From a virus (taxonomy: Duplodnaviria; Caudoviricetes), in IMG/VR virus record IMGVR_UViG_3300033149_002250, positions 1,355-65,354 of that record: a DNA stretch of 64,000 nt; one strand, given 5' to 3'. Below, in pieces: positions 57,276-61,632 of the stretch. The notes beneath the pieces are model-generated. The model worked only from the letters and a program-made list of their open reading frames with translations. It was not told where the DNA came from and ran no database searches. Position 1 is the first letter of the stretch, and every line of letters starts with the position of its first letter. A program made the position numbers and the translations under genes.

Positions 57276-58679
57276 TTATAACAGGTCGCACACGATCTGC
57301 TCATCGTCGCTGGCCTCCGCCGTTAGAATCACGACGCCGGTGCTCTTGGCAACCTCGGCCACCTCCTTTCGGTTTACCGGATCGAGCGATTCCCACGCTT
57401 CCTGGGGGACCGCCACCAGTCCGCCCTTGCCCACTTGGGTGGCCGCGATCTCCAAGGCAATGCGCCACCTTTCCCCAGGCGACAACTCTGCAAAGGGCTC
57501 TGCCCCCCGATCCGTGTCGCAGACCAGCACGCCATCCTCGACGCGCAGCTTGGACGTGACCTTCGCCACCCAGTCAGAGAGGATGCTGTCGGTCGCCTTG
57601 GCGGACCCCCGCAGCATTTCTGCCTGACGCAGCCTGTCGTCTGCGGCAGAGAGCAGCTTGTCCGCTACCTCCAGGTTGTGCCGGGCCTCCTCGCGGCTGA
57701 TGGCAAGCTCGTGTTCGCGCTTGGCTCTTTCGACCCGCTCGGTGGCCGCGGCAAGCTCCGCGTCGGTCGGACCTTCCGGGATGTCGCCAAGCACCTGCTC
57801 CAGTTCAGCCATCTCCCTTTCGGCCTGTTCTGCCGCGTGTAGGTCGGACTCAAGCTCAACAAGCCGTGCGCGCTCAGCCTTTAGGCTGGCTTCGAGTTGG
57901 GCGATTCGCTCGCGGCTCTCGACCACCCGTTGGCGAATGTCCACAGCAGCCTTCGAGGTCTGTTTCAGGGAGTCCAATCGTCGGGCTGCCTCCTCTGCTT
58001 GGGCGGCACGCTTTTCGGCCTGCTGTCTTTTGACCTCTAGCTCGCGGCGGGCGAGCAGTGCGTTTGAGAGTTCCTGCTCGGCCTCCTTGGGAGAGGGGCC
58101 GCTCCCGATCTCCTCCGGCAGCCTTTCCTTCACTGCGACGGCTTGGGCTTTGAAGTCGCGGGCCGCCGTCTCGTGCTGCCTGGCCGCGGCCTCTAGCTCC
58201 CGCTTGAGTCTGGCTGCCATCGACACCAGATCGCCGTGCCTGGCAGCAATCGGCAGCAGTTCCTCCAAGTCGTACCCTGGCGGCACTATCGGCTCAAACT
58301 CCTTGGCTTCGCCGGCAGCCCCGGCCAACTGGAGCAGAGCCTTGACTCGCACCCTGTTTGCGGCCGACTCGTCTTTCAGCCCAGGATCGACCAGCTGAGT
58401 GATGTCCAGTTTCCCTTCAAGCGTCTGGACCTCGGCTTCCCCGGTGCGCCGCATGCTGCGGCCGATGGTAAGCCTTACACCCACGCCCTCCACCTTCCCT
58501 TTTTTGGCGTGATCTCGCACTGGTGGCCGACCCCGCTTGGAGACAGCCGCTTCGACTGCCTCCAGCGCATGGCTTTTGCCGACCCCGTTACGGCCCCGCA
58601 ACACGACCACGCCGGCGTCGGGAAGGGGGATCATCAGGTGTTCAACTGGCCCGACGTTTTCTAGGTTGATTTCTCGCAT
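57276..58679 (-). CDS. Rad50/SbcC/SMC-like ABC ATPase with coiled-coil
   Basis: Walker A GRNGVGKS, a long coiled-coil, signature LSPGE and QEAWESLD (degenerate Walker B / D-loop). Confidence 0.8.
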   Translation of the reverse strand: MREINLENVGPVEHLMIPLPDAGVVVLRGRNGVGKSHALEAVEAAVSKRGRPPVRDHAKKGKVEGVGVRLTIGRSMRRTGEAEVQTLEGKLDITQLVDPGLKDESAANRVRVKALLQLAGAAGEAKEFEPIVPPGYDLEELLPIAARHGDLVSMAARLKRELEAAARQHETAARDFKAQAVAVKERLPEEIGSGPSPKEAEQELSNALLARRELEVKRQQAEKRAAQAEEAARRLDSLKQTSKAAVDIRQRVVESRERIAQLEASLKAERARLVELESDLHAAEQAEREMAELEQVLGDIPEGPTDAELAAATERVERAKREHELAISREEARHNLEVADKLLSAADDRLRQAEMLRGSAKATDSILSDWVAKVTSKLRVEDGVLVCDTDRGAEPFAELSPGERWRIALEIAATQVGKGGLVAVPQEAWESLDPVNRKEVAEVAKSTGVVILTAEASDDEQIVCDLL

Positions 58680-58689
58680 CGTTTCTCTC

Positions 58690-58858
58690 CTTGCGCTCGC
58701 TCGGGAGCCAGCCGTGGGGCGCATCCCCGTCGCCGGCCGGCCTCGGTCAACCAAACCTGCGCTCCCCTGGGAGCGTGCCGGTGAGCCCACCTGCCGCACA
58801 CGTCGTGCATCGCCCTTGTGCCTGCGCTCCCCTGGGAGCGTGCCGGTGAGCCCACCTG
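58690..58858 (-). CRISPR. CRISPR-like mini-array: two identical 38-bp repeats, one degenerate terminal repeat and two spacers (27 and 28 bp)
   Basis: Repeat CAGGTGGGCTCACCGGCACGCTCCCAGGGGAGCGCAGG at 58821-58858 and 58756-58793, with a 25/38 degenerate copy at 58690-58727. Internal hairpin CGCTCCC/GGGAGCG; period 65-66 bp. Confidence 0.7.
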
Positions 58859-58859
58859 G

Positions 58860-59040
58860 GCAAGACTTAACTCCTTTCTGTCACTGAGGTTGCGACAGCT
58901 CCGCAGCCCCTCAAGCCGGCACTCCCGGAAGGCCCGGGGGCTGTCCCGTGTGGGAATATCCCCGGCTCTTCGCAGCGTTCCTGGACCGTGCCGCCGCGCT
59001 GGGCATTGCGGCCGTGTCCGGCTTCGGCCTGGCAGTGGCC
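58860..59040 (-). ncRNA. Candidate tracrRNA/scaffold region with an anti-repeat at 58910-58926
   Basis: Minus-strand GGGA-GUGCCGG-CU-UGAG can pair with repeat CUCA-CCGGCAC-GC-UCCC (15 bp, two 2-nt bulges). Boundaries are unknown. Confidence 0.5.
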
Positions 59041-59041
59041 G

Positions 59042-59722
59042 TTATAGCACCTTTTCTAATTCGGCACGAAGCTCATGCAGTACCCGAATTGTTTCGTCGC
59101 TGTCGTCCAGCATGCCAGTACGGACAAGCAGAATCAACTGCCGTGCATGAAAGGTAGCCGGCATTCCCGACAGCTTGGGCACCGCTTCGATCTGCTCGTC
59201 CGTAAGGACCGCGCCAGCCAAATGGTCCAAGCCACGTTTCAGCGGTACTGGCGTGCCGTTCTTCGCCACGGCGACCCTGCCTTCGGCCAGTGCCTTTATG
59301 TCGCTTGGCCGCATACACAGCGCCAAGGCGACGCTCTTGACCGCCACGCGGTACTTCTTCGCCAGGATTAGGCACCGCGTCTTGTCCTGCTTCGTAAGAG
59401 ACCTGCCGTGGGCTGCATTGAGCCGCATCGCATCCAGCAGCAACTCGCGGTCACTGGGATACTCGCGCAGCTCAACGGCAACGATGGGGTTGTCACCAAA
59501 CTCTCGCTTGTAGGCTCGATAGCGATGAAAGCCATCGACAATTCTCTTGCTCCTTGCCTCAGCAATAATCGGCGGCAGGCTGGCGCCCCCGCGGATCGCA
59601 TCGCACAAATTGGCCACGTGCTGACTGTCCACAGTCTGCCTGGGATACAAGTCCCAGTCAAGGACCAGTTCACTCAGCGGCAGCTGGGCAAGCCTTACTT
59701 TCGGCGACGCGATCTTCGCCAT
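59042..59722 (-). CDS. ParB/Srx N-terminal (CTPase-like) domain protein
   Basis: LYPR, LPPII, IVDGFHRYRA (GxxR patch) and LNAAHG.SLT..DK, followed by a possible HTH. Confidence 0.85.
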   Translation of the reverse strand: MAKIASPKVRLAQLPLSELVLDWDLYPRQTVDSQHVANLCDAIRGGASLPPIIAEARSKRIVDGFHRYRAYKREFGDNPIVAVELREYPSDRELLLDAMRLNAAHGRSLTKQDKTRCLILAKKYRVAVKSVALALCMRPSDIKALAEGRVAVAKNGTPVPLKRGLDHLAGAVLTDEQIEAVPKLSGMPATFHARQLILLVRTGMLDDSDETIRVLHELRAELEKVL

Positions 59723-60923
59723 TGGGCAGCTCCTTTCCTGTGATGAAGGACAACCCTTGGCCGTGGGCCTTGTGCTGTAACTGGGTCACGAAGGTGTGCC
59801 AGGGAAAGCCATTCCGGCGGGGCTCGGTGTCCAGCCAGACGATCCCAGCGAATCCGTTACGCTTGGCATAGCCGACCACTTGGGCCGACAATTGGTGTGC
59901 CGCCGTGTCCATGCGGCGGCGGTACTTCTCGGCAAGCGACTTGAACCGGCTGCGCAGCTTGCCGCGGACCTCCATCTTGGCGTCCTCGCTCAGTCGCCGC
60001 AGCCGCCGCTGGTGCTCACGCTGCCACCTGGCAACGTGATCGGCATTGATGGTCCAGAGCTTATTCTGTTTGGCGTTCACCGCCTGTAGCAGACAATCCT
60101 CGCCAGGCATTACGAACAACAAGCCCCGGCTGCCGTCCGGCTGCCCATCACGTGGAAGCCACAGACACATCTTGCAGAGCAACCTGCCGACCTTGCCGAT
60201 ACCTGGCCGGTGGTCGCCGCTGGAGCCCTTTTGTTCATACAAAGCCACCTCGGCCCGCAATGCTTCGCCTGCCAACAGTTTCTCGAAGGCAGCTAGCTGT
60301 CTGCGGTAATCGTGGCCGCCACGCAGCCTCAGATGCACCTGCCGCCCGGCCAGCCGGATACGCACCACCGGCCGCCCCTGTTCGTCCCGCAAAGCCCGCC
60401 AGTCCTTCGCGCGAATGGGAAGCACCGCCCGGTCGTAGCGGAAGTTCGGCACAGACTCGTTGCCGAGCCAGATGACGTTGTACCGCCGTTTGCGCCAGCG
60501 GCCCTCAACTGCGTGCAACACGGCACAAACCGTGGACGGCTCCAGTTCCGGGCACAACTTGCGGGCTTCGGGGTAAAGGTACACAGCCGGGGCCTTCGGC
60601 AGTTTTTCCATTTCCGGTGTGCGCACCACGTCTGCCTTCGCCAGCTGAGTTATGGCCCAGTTGCTCAACCGGACGGTCGCCCGCCAAGCGGCCTTTAGCC
60701 AGTCGCGCAGCTCCGACCACTCGCAGTCCGTCGGCCCCGCCACCGGAATAGTTACGGCCCGCAACACGTAGCGGTCCTTCCAGCAGGTGGCACACATCAC
60801 ATCGCCAGACGGCAGGCGATGCCAGCCGGGCGGCAGCCGCTTCGCCTGGGTCGTTTTGCCGCAGCCCGCGCACACGTACTCACGCTCCTCCGCTGCCATG
60901 GCATTGCCCTCCTGCTCACTCAT
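59670..60923 (-). CDS. Nuclease-dead TnpB/Cas12f-like RNA-guided DNA-binding protein with an N-terminal Zn finger
   Basis: C-terminal HQLSAQVVGYAKRNGFAGIVW and FPWHTFVTQLQHKAHGQGLSF align by eye with the TnpB/Cas12 RuvC region. The RuvC-I Asp position reads LFVMPG; the TNB Zn finger and RuvC-III are absent. Confidence 0.65.
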   Translation of the reverse strand: MSEQEGNAMAAEEREYVCAGCGKTTQAKRLPPGWHRLPSGDVMCATCWKDRYVLRAVTIPVAGPTDCEWSELRDWLKAAWRATVRLSNWAITQLAKADVVRTPEMEKLPKAPAVYLYPEARKLCPELEPSTVCAVLHAVEGRWRKRRYNVIWLGNESVPNFRYDRAVLPIRAKDWRALRDEQGRPVVRIRLAGRQVHLRLRGGHDYRRQLAAFEKLLAGEALRAEVALYEQKGSSGDHRPGIGKVGRLLCKMCLWLPRDGQPDGSRGLLFVMPGEDCLLQAVNAKQNKLWTINADHVARWQREHQRRLRRLSEDAKMEVRGKLRSRFKSLAEKYRRRMDTAAHQLSAQVVGYAKRNGFAGIVWLDTEPRRNGFPWHTFVTQLQHKAHGQGLSFITGKELPNGEDRVAESKACPAAAE

Positions 60924-61521
60924 CGTCCTGCTTCGGGATCGGCTCCCAGTCCGGGCACCAGTCCATGCTTCTCCTGAGTTGGAGCCATCGGTTTATGCAT
61001 AGCTCTGATCCTTCTGGTGTGTCGCGCATGCAGAGCCGGAAGTAAGGGCGCTCGCACCGCACCGCTTTCTCGGCGTCCGGGTCGCCCCACCAATGGGCGC
61101 AAGTGCGGCACTCATTCTCGTGGCCCAAGAGGCCCTGGACCTCCAGGAGAGCACCCCCGTACCCTTTGTCCAGCGGCCACTCGCTCGGCTCCTGCGGACA
61201 GCATGGCACGGCCCTATCGTCGATGTAGGCCGCCGCCAGAGGTTTGCCCTGCCCAGTGTAAACCTCGTCGAAGTAAAACCCATGCTCACGCAGCCATGAT
61301 TCGACTCGCGCCGCAAGTTGCTGCGTCGTCTCGTCGGACTCGCTGGCCTCTGGGTTGCACCGGACGGTGAAGATCACCACGCGGGCCATCTTCGACAATT
61401 TATGCGTGAAGTCAACCGCCCCAGGCAGCGGTTTGCCGATGTGGTCAATGCCACGCCAATGATCGAACTCAGCGAGCACGCCGTCCAGATCAACGCAGAC
61501 GGTTTTTTTCATTTCATCCAT
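60916..61521 (-). CDS. HAD-superfamily phosphatase with a Cys-rich C-terminus
   Basis: VCVDLDGVL (DxD), FTVR, GKP and YIDDRA; start reassigned to MDEMKK. Confidence 0.8.
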   Translation of the reverse strand: MDEMKKTVCVDLDGVLAEFDHWRGIDHIGKPLPGAVDFTHKLSKMARVVIFTVRCNPEASESDETTQQLAARVESWLREHGFYFDEVYTGQGKPLAAAYIDDRAVPCCPQEPSEWPLDKGYGGALLEVQGLLGHENECRTCAHWWGDPDAEKAVRCERPYFRLCMRDTPEGSELCINRWLQLRRSMDWCPDWEPIPKQDDE

Positions 61522-61569
61522 CGGTATTTGCCCCCATGGTGCCGATTGTCTTTCGGGCTCTTCCGTCAA

Positions 61570-61632
61570 TGTTCCACGTGAAACATTCGCCTGTGTTTCA
61601 CGTGAAACGGCACCTGTGTTCCACGTGAAACG
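61570..61632. promoter_or_regulatory. parS: Three tandem parS centromere sites
   Basis: TGTTCCACGTGAAACA (61570-61585), TGTTTCACGTGAAACG (61594-61609) and TGTTCCACGTGAAACG (61617-61632) match the bacterial consensus TGTTNCACGTGAAACA. Confidence 0.9.

Follow-up and report, generated by a model that had tools for sequence, protein, structure and literature searches.

A likely phage-borne, CRISPR-derived RNA-guided silencing system unable to cut DNA, with a ParB-like gene as its possible modular accessory

The window analysed here is a whole stretch of 64,000 nucleotides, corresponding to positions 1,355–65,354 of the IMG/VR record IMGVR_UViG_3300033149_002250 (Duplodnaviria; Caudoviricetes). 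The record, rated 100 for completeness, holds a whole virus genome of 65,354 bp that ends in direct terminal repeats. The window covers nearly all of it, and the G+C content is approximately 0.6. Within the leftward block of early and replication genes, a gene for a Cas12f-like protein, the effector, is followed by a ParB-like gene, a structured scaffold RNA and a short array of the CRISPR kind. A second scaffold with its own array was found 53 kb from the effector. The elements are the following.

59670–60923, minus strand: predicted nuclease-dead Cas12f-like effector, an open reading frame (ORF) of 417 amino acids (409 as the gene call in the protein collection)
59042–59722, minus strand: ParB-like protein of 226 amino acids, with a ParB/Srx N-domain, a helical DNA-binding-type domain and a DGFHR motif
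58939–59047, minus strand: scaffold (tracr-like, that is, resembling a trans-activating CRISPR RNA) copy A, matched by the covariance model R1 with 73.7 bits (E = 4e-19)
58859–58938, minus strand: tail of scaffold A, with a hairpin, a proposed anti-repeat (about 58910–58926) and a short leader, delimited by alignment with other loci
58690–58858, minus strand: array A, made of a repeat (58821–58858), a 27-nt spacer, a repeat (58756–58793), a 28-nt spacer and a degenerate repeat (58690–58727)
5462–5571, minus strand: scaffold RNA copy B, matched by R1 with 45.8 bits (E = 4e-11)
5217–5461, minus strand: tail of scaffold B and array B, with 31-nt repeats at 5382–5412, 5313–5343, 5265–5295 and 5217–5247 and spacers of 38, 17 and 17 nt

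A first-pass annotation made from the letters of the window had listed parS sites, a HAD phosphatase, a dead Cas12-like protein, a ParB-like gene, an anti-repeat region, a repeat array and a Rad50/SMC-like ATPase; each of these elements was present in its place. The second scaffold and its four-repeat array were absent from that list. Related loci were sampled from viral (10), metagenomic (44) and metagenome-assembled genome (MAG; 6) sequences, two of which (L012 and L062) lie on the same contig as a third, L009.

The effector was modelled with AlphaFold2 (AF2) from 41 family members (pLDDT 90.8, pTM 0.82). When this model was compared with the PDB using Foldseek, Cas12f structures ranked first (AsCas12f 8j12_A, E = 2.8e-18, TM 0.59) and 76 chains had E values of 1e-3 or lower. 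VIA structural alignments gave Z 24.8 with AsCas12f 8dzj_A (334 residues aligned, root-mean-square deviation 6.0) and Z 22.8 with the natural dead Cas12f (dCas12f) 9n9c_A (320 residues, 5.1), compared to 16.6 for TnpB, 16.4 for Cas12k and a range of 12–16 for Cas12m and Cas12k. The Cas12f fold, with the WED, REC and RuvC architecture of Cas12f/TnpB, spans effector residues 44–400. The first 43 residues or so are an addition relative to Cas12f, and correspond to an extra N-terminal zinc ribbon with two CxxC pairs in 35 of the 41 members. Sequence comparisons agreed with the structural ones: the family profile recovered OsCas12f 9nzq_A (E = 2.9e-11), AsCas12f (3e-7) and dCas12f 9n9c (4.8e-5) among PDB sequences, and the PADLOC Cas12f model matched the effector with E = 2.4e-11. 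General domain models saw little of it, Pfam returning just a sub-threshold OrfB_IS605 match (E = 0.046) and the NCBIfam model guided_TnpB a match (5.7e-6) well under its cut-off.

The catalytic residues have been lost. In the HMMER alignment, the RuvC-I aspartate (GVDMG of OsCas12f) faces Met264 of the effector and the RuvC-II glutamate (MEDL) faces Leu356. Among the 41 members, the RuvC-I column never holds Asp, its consensus being Arg (22/41), and the RuvC-II column holds Glu once and Asp in 24. Past this second column 33–67 residues remain, with CxxC in none of the aligned members, so that the zinc finger and RuvC-III are absent. The alignments and the model together support a truncated, nuclease-dead effector of the Cas12f/TnpB type, as the first-pass description of an approximately 410-amino-acid protein with TnpB/Cas12 RuvC-like motifs and no catalytic triad had anticipated. 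Activity was probably lost separately from the lineage of dCas12f 9n9c, because the family profile matches 9n9c less well than it matches the active OsCas12f. The family is large: 875 representatives at 50% identity were collected, 344 of them with E values of 1e-30 or lower, and the candidates scored formed 99 clusters at 90% identity. Its carriers are phages and MAGs of Planctomycetota and Acidobacteriota, and none of the family members listed had a precomputed Pfam domain.

In the related loci a conserved stretch of approximately 110 nt precedes every first repeat. RNAalifold placed compensatory changes in four of the five pairs of its first hairpin. The covariance model R1 was then built from 17 sequences, with three further helices added by eye, and matched 36 of 49 sources. 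Every match lay on the effector strand, immediately behind the effector or ParB gene. Ten of the 13 misses had less than 200 nt of sequence past the effector, and all six MAG loci were matched. Across 40 matches, 80.5% of the cells could pair, compared to 61.6% in column shuffles (none of 500 as high), in an alignment fitted to the R1 model and therefore biased toward pairing; the value fell to 31–42% when the partners were slid, and double changes were seen in 17 of 19 pairs. No Rfam family matched anywhere in the window. The order effector, scaffold, array was maintained in phages and MAGs over 34–77% effector identity, which supports a real guide-RNA apparatus conserved throughout the family.

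Array A holds two identical 38-nt repeats and a third, 66% identical, confirming the alternation of repeats and spacers ending in a degenerate repeat that had been noted before. The start-to-start spacings are 65 and 66 nt, not one repeat match arose in 100 shuffles, and the degenerate repeat extends into the ribosome-binding site (RBS) of the ATPase gene that follows. Arrays of 36–39-nt repeats with a 65–75-nt period were found in 17 of the 38 loci scanned, a count that leaves out three irregular or misplaced matches (L042, L043 and L052). They start 100–130 nt past the effector stop codon in 14 loci; in the other three (the window, L009 and L040) a ParB gene comes in between and the array starts behind it. 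In the closest relative, L009, whose effector is 77% identical, the array is homologous to array A and holds seven repeats separated by six differing spacers.

The model R1 found exactly two scaffold copies in the phage genome. Copy B, which was left out of the building of the model, differs from copy A by changes that are compensatory in the helices when read by eye. The four repeats of array B have 0–3 mismatches (0 in 100 shuffles) and share the 3′ end CGCAGG with those of array A. The final repeat reaches the start of a gene for an excisionase-like helix-turn-helix (HTH) protein (TIGR01764, E = 6.3e-4, below cut-off), the first gene of an operon which continues with a CsrA-like ORF (recognised by eye, 4810–5019), a YqaJ-like gene and a RecT-like gene. 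Since this second scaffold and array are present 53 kb away, it seems that a single effector draws on two guide loci. A second R1 match at a distance from the first was also seen in L005 (7578–7687) and in L042 (11418–11530), so that it may be common for an effector of this family to have additional guide loci.

The two arrays of the phage end alike. In both regions (58661–58727 and 5189–5247), the final degenerate repeat runs up against the RBS or start codon of the gene that follows, that of the SMC-like ATPase or of the HTH protein. The "guide" past this repeat would therefore be the 5′ end of the gene itself, either a self-directed regulatory guide or simply the place where the array stops.

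Loci without arrays show a simpler arrangement, with a lone repeat-like hairpin and then unique sequence behind the scaffold. Judged from its layout, this is a single guide of natural origin. The repeat of most family members folds back on itself as a closed hairpin standing straight after the scaffold. In the window and L009, the position of this first hairpin repeat is occupied by another hairpin, with a 3′ arm that can pair in part with the array repeat and that the first-pass annotation had taken as an anti-repeat. When the scaffold tail was paired with the repeat using RNAduplex, shuffled repeats did as well in 169 of 300 cases for array A, 58 of 300 for array B and 2 of 300 for L009. The partly complementary arm is there, and because shuffled repeats form duplexes with it that are as good, an anti-repeat in the window is no more than plausible; the pairing stands out in L009 alone.

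Two other forms were noticed among the relatives. In L049 (944–1270) and L059 (7284–7650), many copies of the last 10 nt or so of the repeat (for example GTGCTTCGGG) are each followed by 15–25 nt of unique sequence, making half-repeat guide arrays. In L058, a MAG of Bryobacteraceae, a tRNA-like gene recognised by eye lies close behind the single-guide locus (about 150–230 nt past position 7319), suggesting that this effector sits at the edge of an integrated element.

The ParB-like ORF overlaps the effector ORF by 53 nt. It matched phrog_1033 (E = 5.4e-10) and, below cut-off, Pfam ParB_N (0.0077). With its AF2 model (pLDDT 94.4), Foldseek retrieved pNOB8 ParB-N (5.8e-7), the Bacillus subtilis ParB-CDP structure 6sdk (2e-6), Noc 7nfu and KorB 8qa9, with E values from 6e-7 to 4e-5 over approximately 200–238 alignment columns and TM values of 0.38–0.48. 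As modelled, it has a real ParB/Noc/KorB-like fold, in line with the overlapping ParB-CTPase-like gene of the first-pass annotation. The family, in 51 clusters, has an invariant D-G-F-H-R followed by Y/x-R/x-A. This motif aligns to G-E-R-R-W-R-A of Myxococcus xanthus ParB (E = 0.013), the first arginine being replaced by histidine.

Shadow ORFs of the effector aside, the ParB-like family was the sole neighbour family common to at least four loci in an all-against-all clustering of the ORFs of 49 loci. No recurrent cas1/cas2-like neighbour was seen across these loci, just as none had been recognised in the window. The ParB gene lies inside the effector–guide cluster, with gaps of less than 100 nt, in five non-redundant loci. 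The order is effector, ParB, scaffold and array in the window, L009 and L040; effector, scaffold, array and ParB in L019; and effector, scaffold, half-repeats, ParB and a second scaffold in L049. With redundant loci set aside, 22 effector loci extend 1.5 kb or more downstream, and three of these have the gene; the remaining two carriers are short contigs, and since short contigs free of ParB are uninformative, this part of the sample is biased. The first-pass annotation had looked to homologous loci for a conserved linkage of effector, parB and array with variable spacers: the linkage of effector and array was kept, with spacers that vary as in L009, and that of ParB is not obligatory. The ParB-like protein is an optional partner and does not belong to the minimal system.

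A FastTree phylogeny of 58 ParB-like proteins united those of the window, L009 and L019 in one clade (support 95), with that of L040 near and that of L049 far. The effector-linked label needs three changes on this tree, a number as low in one of 500 shuffles, and the clade is nested inside ParBs linked to another RNA-guided protein, Vipr. A prediction of the complex between effector and ParB scored 0.00; made without controls, it gave no verdict and counts neither way.

A scan of IMG/VR with the ParB alignment returned 63 loci, or 62 once the L009 contig was set aside. In 41 of these 62, a gene for a protein of approximately 190–230 amino acids adjoins the ParB gene on the same strand. Nothing in Pfam matched this neighbour, and PHROGs gave just phrog_4652, of unknown function; its profile matched the PDB chain named "SUSP1 Vipr protein" with E = 4.8e-23. 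According to the available parts of two preprints, VIPR systems are phage-borne, RNA-guided and transcription-silencing, with vipr, an accessory vap gene and guide arrays as typical components, and vap1 of phage SUSP1 is required for protection against a satellite (10.64898/2026.04.26.720920; 10.64898/2026.10.15.759431). Runs of at least six GGYNN units within 2.5 kb were present in 29 of the 62 loci, 28 of which also have the Vipr homologue, the arrays lying between or around the genes. The ParB loci with a Vipr homologue and GGYNN arrays are VIPR systems, and the position of the ParB gene beside Vipr in 41 loci is that of the VIPR accessory gene. The ParBs most closely related to the effector-linked ones (L063, L065 and L066) are themselves linked to Vipr. 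Searched with tblastn against GenBank phages, the ParB gave no match; a Vipr-like query matched two phages. One viral contig, L010, carries a Vipr-like ORF (2446–3090) and a member of the dead-Cas12f family (5962–6804) approximately 3 kb apart, and hence two RNA-guided systems.

Spacer targets were sought at several levels. Seven stretches resembling guides, taken from arrays A and B, were compared with the whole phage genome and matched themselves and, beyond that, other places at chance level (best 18/27 and 19/28). The array regions of 22 loci, compared by blastn-short with all loci collected, showed no cross-targeting. Array A gave short, G+C-rich, chance-level matches in 401 Planctomycetota genomes, the best being 80% over 55 nt. 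Exact 20-mers of the two window spacers had no match in IMG/VR, where two L009 spacers recovered their own array as sole match, showing that the scan works. The single guides of two MAG loci were compared with their own genomes: one gave a non-extending, chance-level match of 17/20, and the other matched itself alone. As no target was found, the biological role rests on analogy.

We consider it likely that the phage carries a CRISPR-derived, RNA-guided silencing system unable to cut, with ParB as a modular accessory. Confidence is highest, and indeed high, for the core, in which a nuclease-dead derivative of Cas12f binds DNA under RNA guidance and has two guide loci and a defined scaffold RNA. 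The simplest reading of the ParB-like gene, a modular accessory in common with VIPR, could equally well be right or wrong. In the model that we propose, the effector, having lost the RuvC active site, would be loaded with guides made from the scaffold of approximately 110 nt and the repeat–guide units. The guides would come from two loci, one by the effector and one 53 kb off, each heading an early or replication operon. The guide complex would most likely bind matching DNA and block expression or replication, and its targets, by analogy with Cas12m, TldR and VIPR, would probably be a rival mobile element or the host. With an evenly balanced chance, ParB would act on the DNA site found by the guide complex. 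The fold, the lost catalytic residues, the conserved RNA, the arrays and the patterns of linkage are observed here, and in this model DNA binding, silencing, the class of target and the cooperation of effector and ParB are all things that we infer.

Several observations weigh against this interpretation. The ParB gene is absent from 19 of the 22 effector loci with sufficient downstream sequence and from all six MAG loci, so that the effector works without it in most lineages. Conversely, neither effector nor scaffold RNA was found within 5 kb of ParB in any of the 62 other ParB loci. The tree of the effectors, whose scattered ParB-linked rows speak for a modular ParB (four changes, a number as low in 176 of 500 label shuffles, and thus no tighter clustering than by chance), came from a quick, unfinished search. 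The anti-repeat of the window, in its G+C-rich DNA, is indistinguishable from chance, the scaffold alignment has the bias mentioned above, and no search made for spacer targets found one. The vipr–vap1 segment of SUSP1 measures just 1,114 bp, from which it follows that Vap1 is smaller than, and different from, the 226-amino-acid ParB, and the word ParB is nowhere in the available text of the VIPR preprints (10.64898/2026.04.26.720920; 10.64898/2026.10.15.759431). The working link between effector and ParB proposed by the first-pass annotation is accordingly upheld in part, by the five clusters in three gene orders and by the Vipr neighbourhood of the family, and undercut by its rarity among well-flanked effector loci and by the effector-free ParB loci.

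Dead derivatives of Cas12f and TnpB are known as RNA-guided repressors or activators, and the effector–guide module might by itself form a roadblock of the CRISPR-interference type. The ParB would then be a mere neighbour, a common early gene beside which the cassette sits or is inherited. The many ParB-free effector loci and the 62 viral loci where the ParB family does without the effector favour this explanation, which is a serious possibility, somewhat short of probable. It accounts poorly for a linkage which persists through three gene orders at tight spacing, for the ParB gene lying between the effector and its own scaffold in three loci, or for ParB being the sole recurrent neighbour. 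Mere position would also hardly account for the same ParB family partnering the unrelated RNA-guided Vipr.

This last point allows a broader proposal, which we put forward tentatively as it is rather less probable than not. The ParB-like family might be a plug-in silencing accessory of unrelated nuclease-free RNA-guided binders, namely Vipr (in most loci), dead Cas12f (in at least five) and, with a ParB-like gene, TIGR-TasA. The guide complex would hand its site to a nucleotide-dependent clamp that spreads on DNA or condenses it and so silences a targeted rival element, an RNA-programmed loading of ParB with no need for parS.

In the mechanism closest to the first-pass idea, the dead effector would place a ParB clamp on an RNA-specified site, from which ParB would spread and silence the flanks, as KorB or P1 ParB do from their own sites. 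KorB and P1 ParB have silencing roles, and to our knowledge ParB clamps load solely at their own DNA sites. Clamp loading and spreading make an attractive mechanism, which we nevertheless regard as doubtful. Clamps that depend on CTP (ParB-CDP, Noc and KorB) are matched by the ParB model across approximately 200–238 alignment columns, Gly64 and Arg67 of the nucleotide-binding box are invariant, and the linkage to the effector described above argues in the same direction. The first arginine of the box, however, is histidine in every family member, and the protein is shorter than chromosomal ParB, with no C-terminal dimerisation domain identified in it.

Under self-regulation, the guides, or the terminal repeat with the adjoining gene start, would send the effector to early and replication operons of the phage itself, where it would serve to time their expression as a switch. 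Both arrays indeed occupy operon 5′ leaders and end against an RBS or start codon, and TldR and the CRISPR-linked dCas12f have been reported or proposed as regulators of nearby genes (PMC13472631). No spacer matched elsewhere in the phage genome above chance level, however, and the six differing spacers of L009 fit changing outside targets better than a fixed self-target. We regard a switch of this kind as improbable.

The following genes and sites around the system are neighbours and not a conserved part of it.

61570–61631, no strand assigned: three parS-like palindromes
about 60916–61521: HAD-like gene (phrog_1238, E = 1.1e-12)
57276–58682, minus strand: SMC/Rad50-like ATPase, heading the replication genes (replisome organiser and DnaC-like loader)

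In minus-strand order, the upstream side comprises a MazG-like pyrophosphatase, a 220-amino-acid protein (phrog_14517), the three palindromes, the HAD-like gene and the effector. The downstream side runs from the effector through the ParB-like gene, a 183-nt spacer region, the repeats, the ATPase and the replisome organiser to the DnaC-like loader. The ATPase matched AAA_23 (2.6e-6), phrog_1499 (7e-12) and NCBIfam ASRP (1e-6); by tblastn it was found in one related locus, L019, 3 kb upstream of the effector. The HAD-like gene, the 220-amino-acid protein, the replisome organiser and DnaC had no tblastn match beside the effector in the other loci, and in L009 the gene behind the array encodes a trypsin-like peptidase. 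The palindromes, TGTTCCACGTGAAAC, TGTTTCACGTGAAAC and TGTTCCACGTGAAAC at 61570–61584, 61594–61608 and 61617–61631, are spaced 23–24 nt apart. One of them is an exact TGTTNCACGTGAAACA, which we take to be the chromosomal parS consensus; the reversed control gave none. Among 137 loci the cluster occurs in this phage alone, apart from one unrelated site in L104, and it is missing from the 10-kb locus of L009. A parS cluster as part of the system was consequently rejected, as were the HAD-like gene and the ATPase, which do not recur; the first-pass annotation had listed all three. No ParA-type ATPase was found in the phage genome, and the control genomes all scored. Such parS-like sites in a phage devoid of ParA may recruit the ParB of the host, or be bound by the ParB-like protein of the phage.

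In the programmable centromere of the first-pass annotation, ParB would be steered by the guides, together with the three parS sites, onto the host chromosome or the phage episome for the sake of segregation. These sites, 650 bp upstream of the effector, and the presence of a ParB-like gene are what recommends it. It is weakened by the lack of a ParA-type ATPase, by the confinement of the parS cluster to this phage and by the many family members without ParB. The direct terminal repeats, moreover, belong to a genome in which nothing points to a plasmid-prophage life style, and we hold a tether of this sort to be very unlikely. Repeats that serve as protein-binding iterons or terminators, next to a protein not guided by RNA, would suit hairpin-forming sequences beside replication genes, and were rejected as highly improbable in view of the conserved order of effector, scaffold and array, the compensatory changes of the scaffold and the whole Cas12f RNA-binding architecture of the effector.

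The preferred reading, a silencing system guided by RNA and unable to cut, brings to light a large unnamed dead-Cas12f family of phages and bacteria with a defined helper RNA, a subset of which has a ParB-like partner from a family usually found beside VIPR. Were ParB to act at sites chosen by the guides, that would offer a natural means of starting ParB-type spreading or compaction at any chosen sequence. It would account for the repeated acquisition of ParB-like genes by unrelated phage guide systems, and would amount to a compact programmable long-range silencer of approximately 410 + 226 residues. ParB aside, the family contributes a scaffold RNA, single- and multi-guide forms, and a phage with two guide loci per effector.

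Among known systems, the type V-F Cas12f nucleases (AsCas12f 8j12, 7wju and 8dzj; OsCas12f 9nzq) are the best relatives of the effector in structure and sequence. They are similar in size and also have a helper RNA between effector and array, an arrangement seen in the window and 16 other loci. Unlike theirs, the catalytic Asp and Glu of the window effector are replaced by other residues, RuvC-III and the zinc finger that binds the target nucleic acid are absent, and there is the additional N-terminal zinc ribbon. TldR, Cas12m and Cas12k are, like the effector, RuvC-dead derivatives of TnpB or Cas12 that bind DNA under RNA guidance (for TldR, PMC13622181). Some RuvC-dead derivatives are found in prophages, and Cas12k acts through partner proteins. 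Cas12m and Cas12k are larger than the effector, which is structurally nearer to Cas12f than to TnpB. TldRs differ by their direct descent from TnpB and by single omega-RNA guides that overlap the 3′ end of the gene, without arrays; single-guide members do exist in the present family.

The natural dCas12f proteins of Bacteroidota, which comprise activators linked to sigma-E and a CRISPR-linked cluster, come close (PMC13472631; PDB 9n9c). In the available part of that account, they share with the effector the Cas12f fold and a C-terminal truncation removing part of RuvC, and with the window system a guide RNA supported by covariation upstream of the arrays and short arrays without adaptation genes. 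The sigma-E-linked dCas12f and a "distinct cluster" of dCas12f near CRISPR arrays with covarying guide RNAs are thus already published. This cluster, known here by its description alone, may or may not include the window family (PMC13472631). The sigma-E-linked proteins share an operon with an ECF-type sigma factor extended at its C terminus; no sigma factor adjoins the effector in the window, and ParB was the sole recurrent neighbour in the 49 loci, not every neighbour of which was scanned for sigma domains. A survey of TnpB and Cas12 reports large inactivated branches in Cas12f and in several V-U groups (PMC10691335). Neither it nor PMC13472631 mentions ParB in the available text. More generally, we found no account of a dead Cas12f or TnpB with ParB in the parts of the literature available; such loci may be listed in supplementary data, whether on tasParB, on the vap classes of VIPR or on the V-U groups in PMC10691335.

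VIPR and the window system, as far as the former is described, have in common that they are phage-borne, nuclease-free and RNA-guided, with the same ParB-like family in the accessory position. They differ in that the window phage has no Vipr homologue (tblastn with nine Vipr-like queries) and no GGYNN run of at least six units, its guide protein being a derivative of Cas12f and not a RAMP. A parallel in gene organisation is the nuclease-less TIGR-TasA, which is operonised with a parB-like gene, the arrays lying upstream, downstream or between both genes (PMC12045711). Tas proteins, unlike the effector, are Nop-domain proteins with dual-repeat arrays, and tasParB is likened here to the window ParB by description, not by sequence (PMC12045711). 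According to the available part of that work, TIGR-TasA nevertheless shares with the window system a nuclease-less RNA-guided DNA binder carried by phages, a ParB-like operon partner and the same pattern of array placement (PMC12045711).

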